Counted from the first letter of the stretch, positions 2,976 to 53,543 are shown. The stretch is DNA of 64,000 bases from Escherichia coli (GCF_011045215.1 NZ_CP049201.1), one strand, 5' to 3'. Notes: generated from the letters alone by a model not told the origin. Numbers and translations are program-made.

Positions 2976-3720
2976 TCCCCGTCGTGATGTGGACCGTCCT
3001 GACGCCGCACAACCGCCACGCCGGCACGGGCTGCTGTATAACCTGCTGTGGGGGTGGCCGTGGACACTGGCCGGGATGGTACTCTCTTCCCTGTTGCTGA
3101 GCCTGCTGATTGAGTACGTGGGTATTACGTTTTTCTGGCCCGGACAGGGGGCCGGGCACAGTGAAGCGGTCATGAACACTGAGCTGGGCTGGTTATCCTC
3201 GGAATTCACCCGCAGTCTGCTGCTGTCCACGCCGTCAGTGACGGTGATGAAGTGGGTGTCCACGGCGTACCAGTGGCTGTTTGTGGACAGCGGATTTATG
3301 GCCTGGATGAAGCAGGGCGCTTCGGTCGATAACAGTGTGATACAGGAAGTGGATACTCTGGGCCGCTGGCTGGCGCATTACCTGCATGATTACCTGATGG
3401 CCACGGTATATGTGACGGTGGTGACGCTGGTCCGGGTGACGATTCTGGTGCTGTCAGTGCCCCTGTTTGTGATGGTGACTCTGGTGGCTGTGGTGGAAGG
3501 TCTGGGAAGACGTGACCTGCGCCGGTACGGTGCTGCGTATGAATCCAGTTTTGTTTATCACCATGCCAGAAAGTCCATTAAACCGGCGATATACATTCCC
3601 TGTATTCTTTATCTGTCCTGGCCCACGGCAGTATACCCGAACCTGCTGATATGGCCGGCGGCCATGCTTCTGGGGGGAGCTATCACCGTGACCATGGCGT
3701 CTTTCAAGAAATATTTATAA
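2968..3720 (+). CDS. ICE integral membrane protein
   Basis: ORF overlapping the traD stop (ATGGCTGA); several long hydrophobic segments; conserved position after traD in this ICE type (recalled). Confidence 0.6.
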   Translation: MADPRRDVDRPDAAQPPRRHGLLYNLLWGWPWTLAGMVLSSLLLSLLIEYVGITFFWPGQGAGHSEAVMNTELGWLSSEFTRSLLLSTPSVTVMKWVSTAYQWLFVDSGFMAWMKQGASVDNSVIQEVDTLGRWLAHYLHDYLMATVYVTVVTLVRVTILVLSVPLFVMVTLVAVVEGLGRRDLRRYGAAYESSFVYHHARKSIKPAIYIPCILYLSWPTAVYPNLLIWPAAMLLGGAITVTMASFKKYL

Positions 3721-16837: not shown

Positions 16838-17165
16838 ACGTAACGCCCGTCAGCGTCTGAAAGCGGTGCTGCTCACAGGCGGTATCCTGCTGGCATTTAT
16901 GGTGGTGGCGCTGTTCATTGCGGATGTGGCCATTCGTCATCCTGAAGGGACAGCTACGTTCAGTTCGTGGATGCGGGCTCACCGTTCTGGCTGGCTGCTC
17001 TGGCGTCTGTGCATTTATATCCTGCTGGGCTGGGGTATCTGGCGTATCGTGCATGCGCCGGGGTTCCGGGCGGAATACCGCCAGCCGTTGATGCGTATCT
17101 GTTGCGCCAGTGTGGCGTTTATTCTGGTCTGTGAATATGCGCTGCTGAAGGCGCAGGGAGGCTGA
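16824..17165 (+). CDS. ICE membrane protein (113 aa)
   Basis: ATG overlaps the upstream stop; multiple hydrophobic helices. Confidence 0.5.
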   Translation: MKMNKRNARQRLKAVLLTGGILLAFMVVALFIADVAIRHPEGTATFSSWMRAHRSGWLLWRLCIYILLGWGIWRIVHAPGFRAEYRQPLMRICCASVAFILVCEYALLKAQGG

Positions 17166-18754
17166 TGATGACAACAAACAGCTATCTTGAATATTTTCTG
17201 ACCCTGCTGGGCTGGCTGATTAATAACGGCCTGTGGGATGTGCTGCTGGGGACCGGGTTGTTTGCACTGCCGCTGGTATTTAAGGTGATTGGGATTTGGC
17301 TGCGGGTCAGGGAAGAAGGGGAGGATGAGGGGAATAAGGGACTTCTCTCGCTGCCCCGTATTGAACATGCACTGTACATGGGTTTTTTTGTGATTATCAG
17401 TTGCTGCGTGCCGCTGGTTAATGTCAGTCTGGGGACTATTGAGTATGACGGCAGTCGTGCAAAGCAGTGCGGAACATGGACGCCGAAGGCACCGGATAAG
17501 ACCGGGTATGCAGGTGTGATTTCCAGTATGGACGGTAAAACGGCGCAGATCCCGCTGTGGTGGCTGATGGTGCACAAACTTTCAAAAGGGGTGACTCAGG
17601 CCGCAGTGGCATCCATTCCCTGTACACCGGATATGCGACAGATGCGTTTTGAGGTTCAGCATACCCGGATCAACAATAAGGCACTGATTGAAGAGCTGCA
17701 GGATTTTACCAATGACTGCTACTCACTGGCGCTGTACAGCTGGAAGCACCAGGATCAGGGAATGACAACGGATAAAAATACGCTGCGGGATATTGAGTGG
17801 ATTGGCAGCAGGACATTTCAGTCGCGTTATTACAATGAACTGCAGTCGAAGATGCCGAGAAGTGCGTTTCCGTGGAATGCATCCCGTGACAGTGGACGCC
17901 CAAACACCGGTCGGGGTGGTTACCCGACCTGTAATGAGTGGTGGAGTGAGGCGGATGTCGGGCTGAAAAGTCGGGTGATGAAGCAGGCTGACCCCGGTAT
18001 GTGGCTGCGTCTGTCAGCAACAATGAAAATGATCGGGAATACAGGCAAGGAGTATGAAGAAGCGGTGATACGCCGTCTGGTCAGTCCGGTGAATATGACA
18101 GTGTCACATGGTGGCAGAGCCTATGCCGGTTATGGCGGGAATGCGGATTTGTCGCTGGATAATGCGGTGACCCGCGTGTTCTCAACGGGGGGCGTGGCGC
18201 TGGGGAGTCTGGCGGCGTTTCCGGCCCTGGATGCGATGCGACAGGCATTACCCATGGTACAGGGGATCCTGTTGATGGCTATTTACGTGATGTTACCGCT
18301 GATTCTGGCGTTTGCGGCGTACGAGATAAAGACGGTGATTACACTGACGTTTGTGATTTTTGCGACTAATTTCCTGACGTTCTGGTGGGAGCTGGCACGA
18401 TGGCTGGATTCATGGATGTTTACAGCGCTGTACAGTTCGGGAACACACAGCCGTTTCAATATGGCAGGGTTTCAGAATACCTCAGATGACCTGATTATGA
18501 ATCTGGTGATGGGCAGTATGTTCCTGATTCTGCCAGCGGTCTGGATGGGGGCATTATCTTGGGCCGGGGTGTATATTGGAGGAGCGATGACTCAAAGTAT
18601 GGGAGATGGCACCAGACAAGCTCAGGCATCAGGAGGCAGTGCTGTTAATATGTTGCAGGATGCTGGGTTGCGGGGGATGTCTGGGGGCACGTCAGCAGGC
18701 TCAACAGGCCAAACAGTAGGCTCGGTAGGTCAAAAATTGAATAAGCAAAAATAA
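17165..18754 (+). CDS. TraG N-terminal-domain-like polytopic membrane protein (mating-pair stabilisation-like)
   Basis: Start overlaps previous stop; 529 aa with several TM segments and a Gly/Ser-rich C-terminus; last gene of the T4SS block. Confidence 0.6.
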   Translation: MMTTNSYLEYFLTLLGWLINNGLWDVLLGTGLFALPLVFKVIGIWLRVREEGEDEGNKGLLSLPRIEHALYMGFFVIISCCVPLVNVSLGTIEYDGSRAKQCGTWTPKAPDKTGYAGVISSMDGKTAQIPLWWLMVHKLSKGVTQAAVASIPCTPDMRQMRFEVQHTRINNKALIEELQDFTNDCYSLALYSWKHQDQGMTTDKNTLRDIEWIGSRTFQSRYYNELQSKMPRSAFPWNASRDSGRPNTGRGGYPTCNEWWSEADVGLKSRVMKQADPGMWLRLSATMKMIGNTGKEYEEAVIRRLVSPVNMTVSHGGRAYAGYGGNADLSLDNAVTRVFSTGGVALGSLAAFPALDAMRQALPMVQGILLMAIYVMLPLILAFAAYEIKTVITLTFVIFATNFLTFWWELARWLDSWMFTALYSSGTHSRFNMAGFQNTSDDLIMNLVMGSMFLILPAVWMGALSWAGVYIGGAMTQSMGDGTRQAQASGGSAVNMLQDAGLRGMSGGTSAGSTGQTVGSVGQKLNKQK

Positions 18755-18823
18755 TTCCAGCGCGGTAAATATTAAATCAGGGGATTGAAGGATGCTCTGA
18801 AATCCCCGATTTTATGTTTTTAA

Positions 18824-19231
18824 TTAATTTCCATCGCGCTCCCATTGTTCTCTCCATATAGGACGCTCCCATTCTTCTCTCCATATAGGACGCTTCCATT
18901 GTTCTCCTTCGTACTCAAAATTCAAGTCATGCCTCTTTTCAAGACTATCACATTGTGTATTAAATCCGGCACCAACACATCGAAGAATGTATGCAACAGC
19001 CCATGTAAACGCCAGACACCCGAGAACTGCCGTGATACTGAAGAGTGCACAAACCACAATTCCGGTTAATCCAATAGCCAGCGGAAGCCGTCCAGTCCAG
19101 GCTGGCAGATGCCTTTTTCTGGCCGCATGAATCCAGAAGTTGTCCCACCGACGAAGCGTTCTTACGAGTCGTTTCCACTGAATGGCAAACCGTTGTCCTC
19201 TGAGATAAGCGGCTTTGTTAGTCGTTTTCAT
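18824..19231 (-). CDS. Membrane protein (135 aa) with a C-terminal W/R-rich tandem repeat
   Basis: Two hydrophobic helices; C-terminus EQWKRPIWREEWERPIWREQWER is encoded by the 27-bp tandem DNA repeat. Confidence 0.45.
   Translation of the reverse strand: MKTTNKAAYLRGQRFAIQWKRLVRTLRRWDNFWIHAARKRHLPAWTGRLPLAIGLTGIVVCALFSITAVLGCLAFTWAVAYILRCVGAGFNTQCDSLEKRHDLNFEYEGEQWKRPIWREEWERPIWREQWERDGN
18838..18907. repeat. Tandem 27-bp repeat (about 2.6 copies)
   Basis: Seen directly: GCTCCCATTGTTCTCTCCATATAGGAC followed by GCTCCCATTCTTCTCTCCATATAGGAC and a partial third unit. Confidence 0.8.
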
Positions 19232-19357
19232 AAGAAAAACTCCTAATTTTCAGTCCTATGTAATGAATTTAATGTTCAAACTATAAGCCATTTTTGTATA
19301 AATATAGGTGAAAAACCATACAGAATCTACCGATAAATGTCTCAAAAGGAGGTGTAA

Positions 19358-19921
19358 ATGTTGAGTAAAAAATTGTTATTGGTTTGTGTTTCATGCCTGG
19401 CGTTAACTGCCTGTTCTGTTGATGAAATTGCTTCGGTTAACAAGCAAATTAGTGATGGTGCTTTTGCTTTAACGGGGGCATTGCGTGGAAACTCATCGTC
19501 TGCGGATTCAAATGGAATGCCGGTTTTAAGTCAGGCGCAAAAACCGGCGACAAAATCCAGAACGCAGGAATATTCAGTACCCGTTGATGTTGATACAGCT
19601 GCTGCTCGCCTTAAACGTTATTACGAGTTTATATCTTTCGATGAAATTGAAGCTATCCGCAAAAAAAACACCAGTGGGGAATGGGCGGCATCAGCAATAC
19701 TTGAACAGAACCCTGTATGGGAGGTTATGCCCGGTAGTTATTATAAAATGGGTCAAAACTGGGACGATTATGATCATCTGACTATTGAAGTGGAAAAGAA
19801 TGGGGCGGGAAGTAAATTATATATTACGTTTAAATCGCCATCGGATAAAAGACTGAATAGTGAAAGTCTCAGGAAACTGATGTTGAATATTAAAGATGTT
19901 GCTGAAGGGAAAATTCGTTAA
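19358..19921 (+). CDS. Lipoprotein of unknown function (187 aa)
   Basis: RBS AGGAGG 8 nt upstream; lipobox LTAC at the end of the signal peptide; AT-rich gene. Confidence 0.6.
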   Translation: MLSKKLLLVCVSCLALTACSVDEIASVNKQISDGAFALTGALRGNSSSADSNGMPVLSQAQKPATKSRTQEYSVPVDVDTAAARLKRYYEFISFDEIEAIRKKNTSGEWAASAILEQNPVWEVMPGSYYKMGQNWDDYDHLTIEVEKNGAGSKLYITFKSPSDKRLNSESLRKLMLNIKDVAEGKIR

Positions 19922-20070: not shown

Positions 20071-20127
20071 TGCTGGTCCCGCATATTGCGTCGAAAAGTA
20101 ATCTGTAAATGGAGATGGTTTGATTTT

Positions 20128-20772
20128 ATGGACTATATTGTTATTTTCGTAGTAGGTTTTTTTATCGGTCTTGTATATGGTAGCGGTAAAAAATATGTAA
20201 AAGATAAACATGTGAGTTATTACCGTGAAAATCGTAATAACGATTTCCAGAAAGCAAATAGTAATATTGAAAAATATGAAAGAGATAATAAGGTATACAG
20301 AAATCCCCGCTGGGAGGGAAAAGATGAAATATTCTGGGGGATGATGAATTCGCAAATTTGCCTTGAAAGAAAACGTGGGCCATATTTATGCACTGATCCT
20401 GAAAATAAGTATTTGTTGAAATTAACTGAGTGGTTTGGTGACATTTGTTACATAAATTGTCAGGTGTCTTTAGGGCAATTGGTTGATTTTAAGGCTAAAA
20501 ATAATAAGCAATTTACTGAGGAGGAAAGAAGGCGGTTTTTTAGTATCTATGCTTCGATGGCAATGGATTATGTACTTGTGTACAAAAAAACAAAAAGAAT
20601 TGTTTGTGTCATAGAGCTTAATGATGGTTCACATAATAAAGAGGAACGAATCGAACGAGACAGAAAAGTTGCTGAGTTATTGAAACGTTGCGATATTTCA
20701 TTTCTCCCGGTGTCTATTGATAAAATGGATATTAAACCCGACATATGGAAAGACAGGGGAAATAGAGAATAA
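20128..20772 (+). CDS. Membrane-anchored protein with a Vsr/DUF559/DUF2726-like endonuclease-fold domain
   Basis: N-terminal TM helix (MDYIVIFVVGFFIGLVYG); C-terminal motifs LVDF ... VCVIELNDGSH ... RDRKVAELLKRCDISFL match the recalled VDF / IE(V)DG..H / D..R...L pattern of that fold. Very AT-rich. Confidence 0.5.
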   Translation: MDYIVIFVVGFFIGLVYGSGKKYVKDKHVSYYRENRNNDFQKANSNIEKYERDNKVYRNPRWEGKDEIFWGMMNSQICLERKRGPYLCTDPENKYLLKLTEWFGDICYINCQVSLGQLVDFKAKNNKQFTEEERRRFFSIYASMAMDYVLVYKKTKRIVCVIELNDGSHNKEERIERDRKVAELLKRCDISFLPVSIDKMDIKPDIWKDRGNRE

Positions 20773-23109: not shown

Positions 23110-23155
23110 CTTGACATCCATCTTTTGTGCCTTAAAAATATACAGGCTAACTTTG

Positions 23156-23416
23156 TTACCTTCGGGTGACCATCCAATGTTTCGGTAGTCTGAGAGAAAC
23201 GCCTTCGGGTGACTACAGTTATCTTCGGATAACCATCCAAATCCCCGGTAGTCTGAGAGGGGAGCCTTCGGGCGACTACCAGCCAATGCTTTGACGATCT
23301 GAGAAAAGCGCCTTCGGGTGATCGTAATGTCTCCGTAGCCTGAAAGGGGACGCCTTAGAGGGTGGTACATCCGTTTAACCTCTGGAAACGGATATCACGG
23401 AACAGTGATCGAGGTC
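23156..23416 (+). repeat. Copy B of the ~185-bp structured direct repeat (23232..23416) plus an extra partial unit (23156..23231)
   Basis: Seen directly: aligns with 20918..21102 over its full length with scattered substitutions; the upstream partial duplication repeats the CCATCCAA...GGTAGTCTGAGAG...GCCTTCGGGTG unit. Confidence 0.8.

Positions 23417-51884: not shown

Positions 51885-53543
<1,659 letters not shown>

Follow-up and report, generated by a model that had tools for sequence, protein, structure and literature searches.

Co-varying C-terminal tails of a divergent DUF3742 protein and its convergent TraG_N neighbour in an Escherichia coli integrative and conjugative element: a candidate entry-exclusion pair

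Known exclusion systems and the small gene beside TraG_N

The closest described entry-exclusion proteins, TraS of F and Eex of SXT/R391 and IncC elements, are small inner-membrane proteins encoded beside a VirB6-like TraG protein that is recognised in the donor (PMC11493245). In SXT, the C-terminal residues of Eex set specificity and its N-terminal part is conserved (PMC5122569), and the exclusion unit is recognised by clusters in which traG and eex co-evolve, forming exclusion groups (PMC2791158). Among the integrative and conjugative elements (ICEs) with a type G mating-pair formation apparatus (MPF_G, or GI-type), namely SPI-7, ICEEc2, YAPI, ICEclc, PAPI-1 and ICEHin1056, PAPI-1 excludes strongly, with an exclusion index of ~298, and the determinant was not identified (PMC5297154). 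In the literature that we searched, no exclusion gene has been described for the MPF_G ICE family. Here, we analyzed a stretch of 64,000 nucleotides of Escherichia coli DNA (GCF_011045215.1 NZ_CP049201.1; hereafter, the window), which contains an ICE of this type, and we propose that a small gene at positions 18824..19231, convergent with the TraG_N gene of that ICE, is a candidate for such a factor.

The features on which the argument depends are the following:

17165..18754, plus strand: TraG_N, 529 aa, VirB6-like, encoded at the end of the type IV secretion operon of the ICE (Pfam TraG_N, PF07916, E = 8.9e-81, full length)
18569..18754, plus strand: variable C-terminal tail of TraG, residues 469–529, after an invariant ..LSWAG
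18824..19231, minus strand: small gene, ATG start, 135 aa; divergent DUF3742 member and candidate entry-exclusion factor
18824..18978, minus strand: 3' part of the small gene, which codes for the variable tail (codons ~85–135 plus stop) and is replaced by unrelated sequence in E. coli homologues that are ~90–94% identical elsewhere
18837..18906, minus strand: 27-bp tandem repeat, 2.6 copies (Tandem Repeats Finder: period 27, 93% matches, no indels, score 126)
18560..18980, no strand: variable cassette of ~400–420 bp, comprising both convergent 3' ends and the spacer, as delimited by sliding DNA identity

This arrangement resembles that of the SXT/R391 and IncA/C Eex/TraG pairs in that a small inner-membrane protein with a conserved N-terminus and C-terminal specificity (proposed in the case of the window protein) is encoded beside traG, and in that its variants track a short TraG segment and define, or here would define, exclusion groups. 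F TraS is likewise a small hydrophobic inner-membrane exclusion protein, encoded directly after traG, with a specificity paired with TraG. Of the properties of Eex/TraS-type proteins, we found a 135-aa protein with a 38-residue hydrophobic helix located 69 bp from TraG_N, as well as allelic groups that co-vary with a TraG segment, the latter being subject to the caveat of physical linkage. However, there are also clear differences. Eex/TraG belongs to MPF_F systems with a TraG of ~1200 aa, whereas the window contains an MPF_G system with a 529-aa protein consisting of TraG_N only, and F traS is co-directional with traG, whereas the small gene is convergent with it. The TraG determinant in SXT is an internal patch of three residues, compared with the whole C-terminal tail of ~40–60 residues that we propose here. 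Two exclusion groups are reported in SXT/R391, and separate EexC, EexD and EexE groups among IncC-like plasmids, whereas the present family has six or more tail classes within E. coli and at least a dozen over the Enterobacterales as a whole. No Pfam family is shared between the small protein and SXT/R391 Eex.

The small protein itself had no match in Pfam (E ≤ 1), the DUF3742 model included. Eleven of 45 family members matched PF12553 (DUF3742) over the full length at 15–25 bits, below the gathering cutoff of 27.2 bits, and relatives in Salmonella have precomputed PF12553 matches and are named 'DUF3742 family protein'. When the E. coli N-terminal profile (A1) was aligned with a Salmonella DUF3742 group (A5) using hhalign, the probability was 98.7% (E = 2.6e-16, 76 columns), and the hidden Markov model (HMM) of A1 retrieved P0047 at E = 2.3e-9. 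Because of this profile–profile match and the sub-threshold relatives, we consider the window protein to be a divergent member of DUF3742 (PF12553). No function is assigned to DUF3742, and the mentions that we found in the literature are annotation lines only. The DUF3742 proteins of ICEclc/PAPI-type ICEs share with the window protein their size, architecture and convergent synteny with traG, whereas the Pfam model differs in that it includes a GYGYY-type tail, which the window protein lacks. In two co-resident ICEs of Pseudomonas syringae, DUF3742 is convergent with traG (PMC8895235). In ICEclc, a distance of 14 bp separates the end of ORF53196 (53196–53573, plus strand, 125 aa) from the 3' end of tfc19, the gene of the TraG homologue on the opposite strand; its position and size suggest homology to the small protein. 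The equivalent ICEclc plus-strand transcript at 52324–53196 showed a log2 stationary/exponential ratio of –1.2, compared with +4.2 for the transcript of the type IV secretion system (T4SS) (PMC2892462), and ORF53196 is thus active during exponential growth and takes no part in the induction of the transfer genes.

The open reading frame (ORF) at 18824..19231 is a real gene, since the exact 135-aa protein (P0012) was found in E. coli assemblies (68 contigs) and a profile of the N-terminal 90 residues retrieved 57 clusters (50% identity level) of 100–150-aa proteins with the same architecture. Its ATG lies 8 nt after an AGGAG Shine-Dalgarno sequence (19244..19240). The protein comprises a basic N-terminal helix (residues 1–40), an LPxWxG(R/H)xP motif, an uncharged helix (49–86) and a variable acidic tail (86–135). 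Residues 1–48 include 13 K/R (net +12), and analysis of hydropathy and charge showed residues 49–86 to be an uncharged hydrophobic block of 38 residues; the product had been called a small membrane protein in an initial annotation of the window, and this description was borne out.

A variable cassette and the co-variation of its two tails

We compared the window with four other E. coli ICEs by sliding DNA identity and found that identity fell to 0.2–0.6 only at ~18560–18980, compared with 0.93–1.0 on either side. Because the drop is confined to this interval, the unit of variation is a cassette made up of the facing 3' ends of the two genes together with the 69 bp that separate them. A megablast search of 5,426 complete E. 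coli genomes (RefSeq) yielded 33 records, in which homology begins at window positions 18978–18986, inside the small ORF, and the tail class of the window was absent from all 33. The E. coli homologues are ~90–94% identical over residues 1–85 and then continue into at least six unrelated tails of ~45–55 residues. The last ~60 residues of TraG_N, past the invariant LSWAG, also vary between elements; this TraG tail is G/S/T/Q-rich, with a Qx[ST]GG core and a K-rich end. For example, between the window and one other locus (L002), the N-terminal part of the small protein is 92% identical and its tail 11%, and the TraG core is 99% identical and the TraG tail 38%. These comparisons indicate that strain-to-strain variation of the tail is mainly a wholesale replacement of ~50 residues, made jointly with the convergent TraG tail, which points to a function.

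Several tail classes recur on very different backbones, namely YR(D/N)GxxGYGYYSG, NNEYDGAPYKSP, the W-rich SYERFSWE..SW / YWWWW, GSNGSNGSDGS and GEFGPGWY. The window tail is of a tryptophan-plus-charge type. Internal duplications are found in other members of this type too (e.g. SYERFSWEKNNYEKFSWEQE in P0110), and most tail classes contain no repeat at all. P0010, a 102-aa protein on a Logan contig, is identical to P0001 as far as residue 69 and is then out of frame; this frameshifted allele is a naturally inactivated copy of the class A gene.

To examine co-variation, 80 loci were collected via the conserved TraG core from species-representative genomes of ~15 Enterobacterales genera. A family member was present in 42 of these loci and was convergent with TraG in all 38 in which TraG was also found. 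A narrow HMM built from E. coli only missed many loci; after it was widened and iterated, the number rose from 65 to 69 and then reached a plateau. In this wider set, convergence held at all 66 loci where both genes were found, and the end of the small gene was usually 1–95 bp beyond the TraG stop codon (156 and 576 bp at two loci). The exceptions to adjacency were two orphan loci without TraG and one locus in which TraG was undetected, and the remaining loci lacked the N-terminal module or contained fragments only.

Among the loci from E. coli, a given class of small-protein tail was nearly always paired with a TraG tail class of its own, the exceptions being L017/L018. Similar pairing was observed across genera. 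Loci from Brenneria, Kluyvera and Morganella share the small-protein tail GPGYRYG..ITSE(R/K)LD and the TraG tail ..TGVSKPQETGG..KK..L, with membrane modules that are 30–37% identical, and between L024 and L028 the N-terminal module is 30% identical, compared with 58% for the small-protein tail and 66% for the TraG tail. For 55 unique loci, a partial Mantel test of small-protein tails against TraG tails, with the TraG core and the N-terminal module controlled, gave r = 0.65 (p = 0.0005), and the corresponding test against the TraG core was not significant (r = –0.13). Within a class, moreover, identity across genera was higher for the tail than for the membrane module (58% versus 30% in one comparison, 50% versus 40% in another), which argues that the tails are constrained and not drifting.

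The two exceptional loci, L017 and L018 (tail class F, P0006), carry a hybrid cassette. Their small-protein tail mixes motifs of classes D and E, and their TraG tail resembles classes A and D in its proximal half and class E in its distal half; such hybrids imply recombination inside the cassette.

Two further kinds of locus depart from the usual arrangement. In Erwinia psidii, Edwardsiella ictaluri and Rouxiella silvae, an ORF convergent with TraG keeps the family tail (ending in ..NAIDDGAPYGESYGTWSDSD or ..LYDPEPYSVDDDH) and lacks the conserved N-terminal module; these ORFs could be truncated genes, or their anchor could have been replaced.

L042 4580–4855; L104 4582–4857; L056 4353–4604, minus strand: tail-only ORFs of 72–74 aa near TraG, convergent with it

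The orphan P0036 (GSNGSDGSSGS tail), at 3001–3360 of L026/L027 (Logan DRR517659 and SRR33299903), has no TraG beside it. Upstream of it are genes for a protein with a PAAR motif, a protein of 729 aa and a secreted protein of 142 aa, and an HNH_2 protein is encoded nearby. Pfam returned nothing for the 729-aa and 142-aa proteins, and the surroundings of this orphan may be an island of toxin or defence genes.

As a natural control, ~30 loci, almost all from Xenorhabdus, possess an intact TraG_N and no family member downstream. The TraG tails of these partnerless elements are nearly invariant (VRMGDMAGMMSQGVGQVRQSAGMFGQMVMQKMLSKGK). At a TraG-core identity of 0.8–0.9, tail identity was 78% without the partner gene compared with 31% with it, and even at a core identity ≥0.97, partner-linked TraG tails were just 52% identical. 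The Qx[ST]GG core was present in 42 of 48 partner-linked TraG tails but in only 3 of 28 partnerless ones. We also compared the numbers of elements per genome, and found that at least two elements of the same type were present in 9 of 19 genomes with partnerless elements (two or three copies), compared with 1 of 38 partner-bearing genomes (Fisher's test, p = 8e-5). Three genomes had two partner-bearing elements; two of them carry different classes, and one, a metagenome-assembled genome (MAG), carries the same class twice.

The 27-bp repeat and neighbouring features

The repeat at 18837..18906 corresponds to the last 24 codons of the small gene and has the second-highest Tandem Repeats Finder score in the window. 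The highest score (159, 79% matches) belongs to a 63-bp repeat of 2.0 copies at 23155–23279, which is overlapped by ORFs on both strands. At an offset of 27, the array matches itself at 40 of 43 bases, with a binomial chance expectation of ~1e-13 over the whole window and all offsets, and its in-frame units are EQWKRPIWR / EEWERPIWR / EQWER, followed by DGN and the stop codon. The period, the offset match and the in-frame translation together confirm a tandem 27-bp repeat of ~2.6 copies encoding a W/R-rich tail, as originally described.

The initial annotation had further suggested that the tail is prone to slippage and may vary in length between strains. The exact protein and a 96%-identical variant share one 90%-identity cluster (E. 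coli, E. marmotae and Escherichia sp.), of which the full-length members listed are all 135 aa (~253 contigs together). Synthetic alleles contracted or expanded by one unit were also built and looked up by exact sequence. A 126-aa allele (P0027; unit 1 joined to partial unit 3, 1.6 copies) was found in two assemblies and a 144-aa allele (P0026; unit 2 duplicated, 3.6 copies) in one. In DNA alignments, both differ by exact in-frame 27-bp indels, with the tail-coding sequence and flanks otherwise identical, and the TraG tail is unchanged at both loci. Copy number is therefore not invariant across carriers. Variants were located on 3 of ~256 carrier contigs (~1%), which is a lower bound because exact-match lookups miss alleles on other backgrounds; the same lookups found neither 0.6- and 4.6-copy alleles nor slippage alleles on the window's own background (P0012). 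Slippage thus occurs, but rarely, and the suggestion was correct but marginal, since the effect is minor beside whole-tail replacement. Because the unit is nine codons long, slippage cannot switch the small gene on or off.

The TraG tails of two E. coli ICEs of tail class D (L005 and L011) differ by one STSSKS unit (×1 versus ×2), which indicates that slippage of a small tandem repeat also takes place in the partner TraG tail.

The other features near the cassette, and the integration end of the carrier ICE, are the following:

18774..18812, no strand: imperfect inverted repeat within the 69 bp that separate the stop codons of the two genes (RNA fold –14.3 kcal/mol, z = –1.5)
19232..19357, no strand: divergent intergenic region upstream of the small gene, 126 bp
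19358..19921, plus strand: conserved lipoprotein gene, 187 aa, lipobox LTAC, pointing away from the small gene and keeping its place beside it in most loci
43423..43498, minus strand: tRNA-Phe, integration end of the carrier ICE (context)

Given the divergent upstream region of 126 bp, the small gene is a transcription unit by itself and runs antiparallel to the T4SS operon. The inverted repeat in the spacer may conceivably act as a bidirectional terminator; its hairpin is no better than that of shuffled sequence. NCBIfam had no match for the small protein or for the 187-aa lipoprotein, and the latter has no family assignment. The surface-exclusion factors TraT and Sfx are lipoproteins, and the lipoprotein at 19358–19921 is of possible interest in this respect. 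Just downstream of it (20086–20772, plus strand) is a DUF2726 protein (E = 3.7e-17), which is present in some related ICEs and not in others.

The carrier ICE contains proteins of the TIGR0374x–0375x ICE families, TraD, a VirB4-like ATPase, PilL, TraI and an integrase beside tRNA-Phe, and the homologous ICE in E. coli RM13745 ends in the same way, with TraI, integrase and tRNA-Phe. A megablast search of the locus against a plasmid collection gave no match. The TraG homologue of ICEclc is needed for transfer and has been called VirB6-like (PMC10018362).

A proposed exclusion function and its alternatives

On balance, we favor the hypothesis that the small protein is an Eex/TraS-like entry-exclusion factor whose tail determines specificity for the cognate TraG tail, although our confidence in it is moderate. 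The hypothesis follows from the adjacency to a VirB6 analogue, the conserved anchor, the variable C-terminal determinant and the co-varying TraG alleles, and it relies on sequence comparison and on analogy with the described systems. The conserved N-terminal module (basic helix plus long hydrophobic helix) would be the inner-membrane anchor of the small protein, and its C-terminal ~50 residues, the tail, would interact, between donor and recipient cells, with the TraG_N tail of an incoming donor of the same type. This recognition in the recipient would block redundant transfer of an SPI-7/ICEEc2/ICEclc-type (MPF_G) ICE, with exclusion as the outcome. The abutting 3' ends of the convergent genes would be exchanged or diversified as one cassette of ~400 bp, which would create new exclusion groups. 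The window tail would be one specificity allele, built by tandem duplication of a 9-codon unit, and slippage to 1.6 or 3.6 copies would be a small-scale route of tail change.

Structure prediction bears on where the tails might meet. The AlphaFold2 model of the window protein has helices at residues 4–39 and 44–88 and a disordered tail (predicted local distance difference test, pLDDT, ~54; mean for the model 77), and that of a GG-containing relative with a GYGYY-class tail has helices at 3–40 and 45–92 and a beta-hairpin tail (pLDDT 74–78; mean for the model 83). A transmembrane hairpin, which was expected from the 37-residue hydrophobic block and from the central GG in most members, was not supported by these two models, both of which show a single continuous helix of 45–48 residues. 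This single long helix and the charge bias (+9 at the N-terminus, –3 in the tail) favor an N-in/C-out orientation with a periplasmic small-protein tail. TraG_N has five hydrophobic (predicted transmembrane) segments, and its tail is predicted to be cytoplasmic if, as we assume, TraG_N follows the topology of VirB6. If both predictions hold, contact within the same cell is impossible and recognition would have to take place across the mating junction; the donor VirB6-like tail would then need to be displayed at the recipient envelope, or delivered into it, via the mating channel.

Several observations weigh against the exclusion hypothesis. The topology just described is, for now, hard to reconcile with simple contact between the tails. 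The sequences coding for the two tails lie side by side, and their co-variation could partly reflect linkage at a recombination hot spot instead of functional coupling. The natural control and the copy-number contrast are both confounded by lineage, the partnerless loci being almost all from Xenorhabdus. L057 and L061, from one Serratia liquefaciens MAG, share a tail class and have nearly identical TraG tails; either exclusion did not hold in this case or the bin combines more than one strain. In Pseudomonas knackmussii B13, ICEclc is present twice. The family profile (A4) showed no homology to F TraS (hhalign probability 0.1%), and a scan of 18600–19450 found no consensus sigma-70 promoter or terminator. 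Finally, a comparative table (PMC3864950) lists Sb0062, which follows traG in ICESb1, among the genes needed for conjugation; if Sb0062 belongs to the small-protein family, a role on the donor side would be implied.

This last point leads to the main rival explanation, namely that the small protein is a cis-acting T4SS accessory subunit or chaperone that binds the TraG_N tail of its own cell, the two tails co-varying only because their fit has to be maintained, and that plays no part in exclusion. We consider this unlikely. It would explain the co-variation and the adjacency equally well, the tabulated requirement for Sb0062 would fit it if that gene is a family member, and IncHI1 EexA/EexB and pKPC_UVA01 TrbK are needed in donor and recipient alike (PMC11493245). 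However, a subunit of this kind gives no reason for at least six unrelated tails on ~90–94%-identical backbones in one species, nor for the ~30 Xenorhabdus elements that have an intact TraG_N, lack the small gene and have multiplied within genomes. The small gene is, moreover, antiparallel to the T4SS operon and its ICEclc equivalent is not co-induced with the T4SS, and the proposed binding would be impossible if the two tails are, as predicted, in different compartments, that of the small protein in the periplasm and that of TraG in the cytoplasm. A different possibility is that neither tail has a specific function, and that two disordered, unconstrained tails at a recombination-prone operon end are drifting or being swapped. 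The low pLDDT of the window tail (~54), the low complexity of the TraG tails and the class F hybrid, which shows recombination within the cassette, are in keeping with this. We nevertheless regard it as improbable because, within a class, conservation across genera is higher in the tails than in the membrane module, the same tail motifs appear on backbones that are unrelated, a beta-hairpin is predicted for the GYGYY-class tail and TraG tails cease to vary where the partner is absent.

The repeat could, alternatively, be of the contingency type, with frequent changes in copy number tuning the length of the tail between strains. It resembles simple-sequence contingency loci in being a coding tandem repeat with natural copy-number alleles, and both the clean 27-bp indels of the 1.6- and 3.6-copy alleles and the STSSKS difference in the TraG tail of another class are in its favor. 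It differs from such loci in its 27-bp in-frame unit, its 2.6 copies, its ~1% of variant carriers and the absence of frameshift switching, and frequent copy change that alters expression or frame was not found. Since just 3 of ~256 carrier contigs deviate, the search for alleles of 0.6 or 4.6 copies gave none, the few units of the array are not exact copies and most classes are free of repeats, we give this explanation little weight, about as little as that of functionless tails. Least probable of all, in our judgement, is an effector/immunity-like pair, in which the TraG tail would harm the recipient (e.g. by lethal zygosis) and the small protein would be the cognate immunity protein. The pairing of a variable C-terminal tail with a cognate small protein encoded next to it is reminiscent of contact-dependent inhibition (CDI) and Rhs loci, and one orphan family member lies beside a PAAR-associated locus; however, that context is a single case, the G/S/T/Q-rich tail of 40–60 residues contains no recognisable toxin domain, and such a pair would overlap with exclusion in practice.

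MPF_G ICEs move virulence, catabolic and resistance genes through Proteobacteria. If the exclusion hypothesis is correct, a function could be given to a Pfam domain of unknown function, MPF_G ICEs could be typed into predicted exclusion groups straight from sequence, and it would become easier to explain which ICEs co-reside or stack in one genome. Such a unit would differ from the known exclusion systems in being an independent antiparallel transcription unit, in having far more classes than SXT and in using the C-terminal tail of TraG as the determinant. We also put forward, tentatively and as something possible rather than probable, a broader hypothesis: DUF3742 tails and TraG_N tails may form a modular, hypervariable recognition code of a dozen or more classes, exchanged as cassettes and diversified by recombination and tandem duplication. 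This code would sort the entire SPI-7/ICEEc2/ICEclc/PAPI-1 (MPF_G) family into its groups of exclusion or self-recognition, and would also account for the missing determinant of PAPI-1. The repeat in the window illustrates how duplication of a 9-residue unit can yield a new tail, and the six or more tails on nearly identical E. coli backbones would constitute a natural swap series for the question, shared with F and SXT, of how a recipient senses the VirB6-like protein of a donor.

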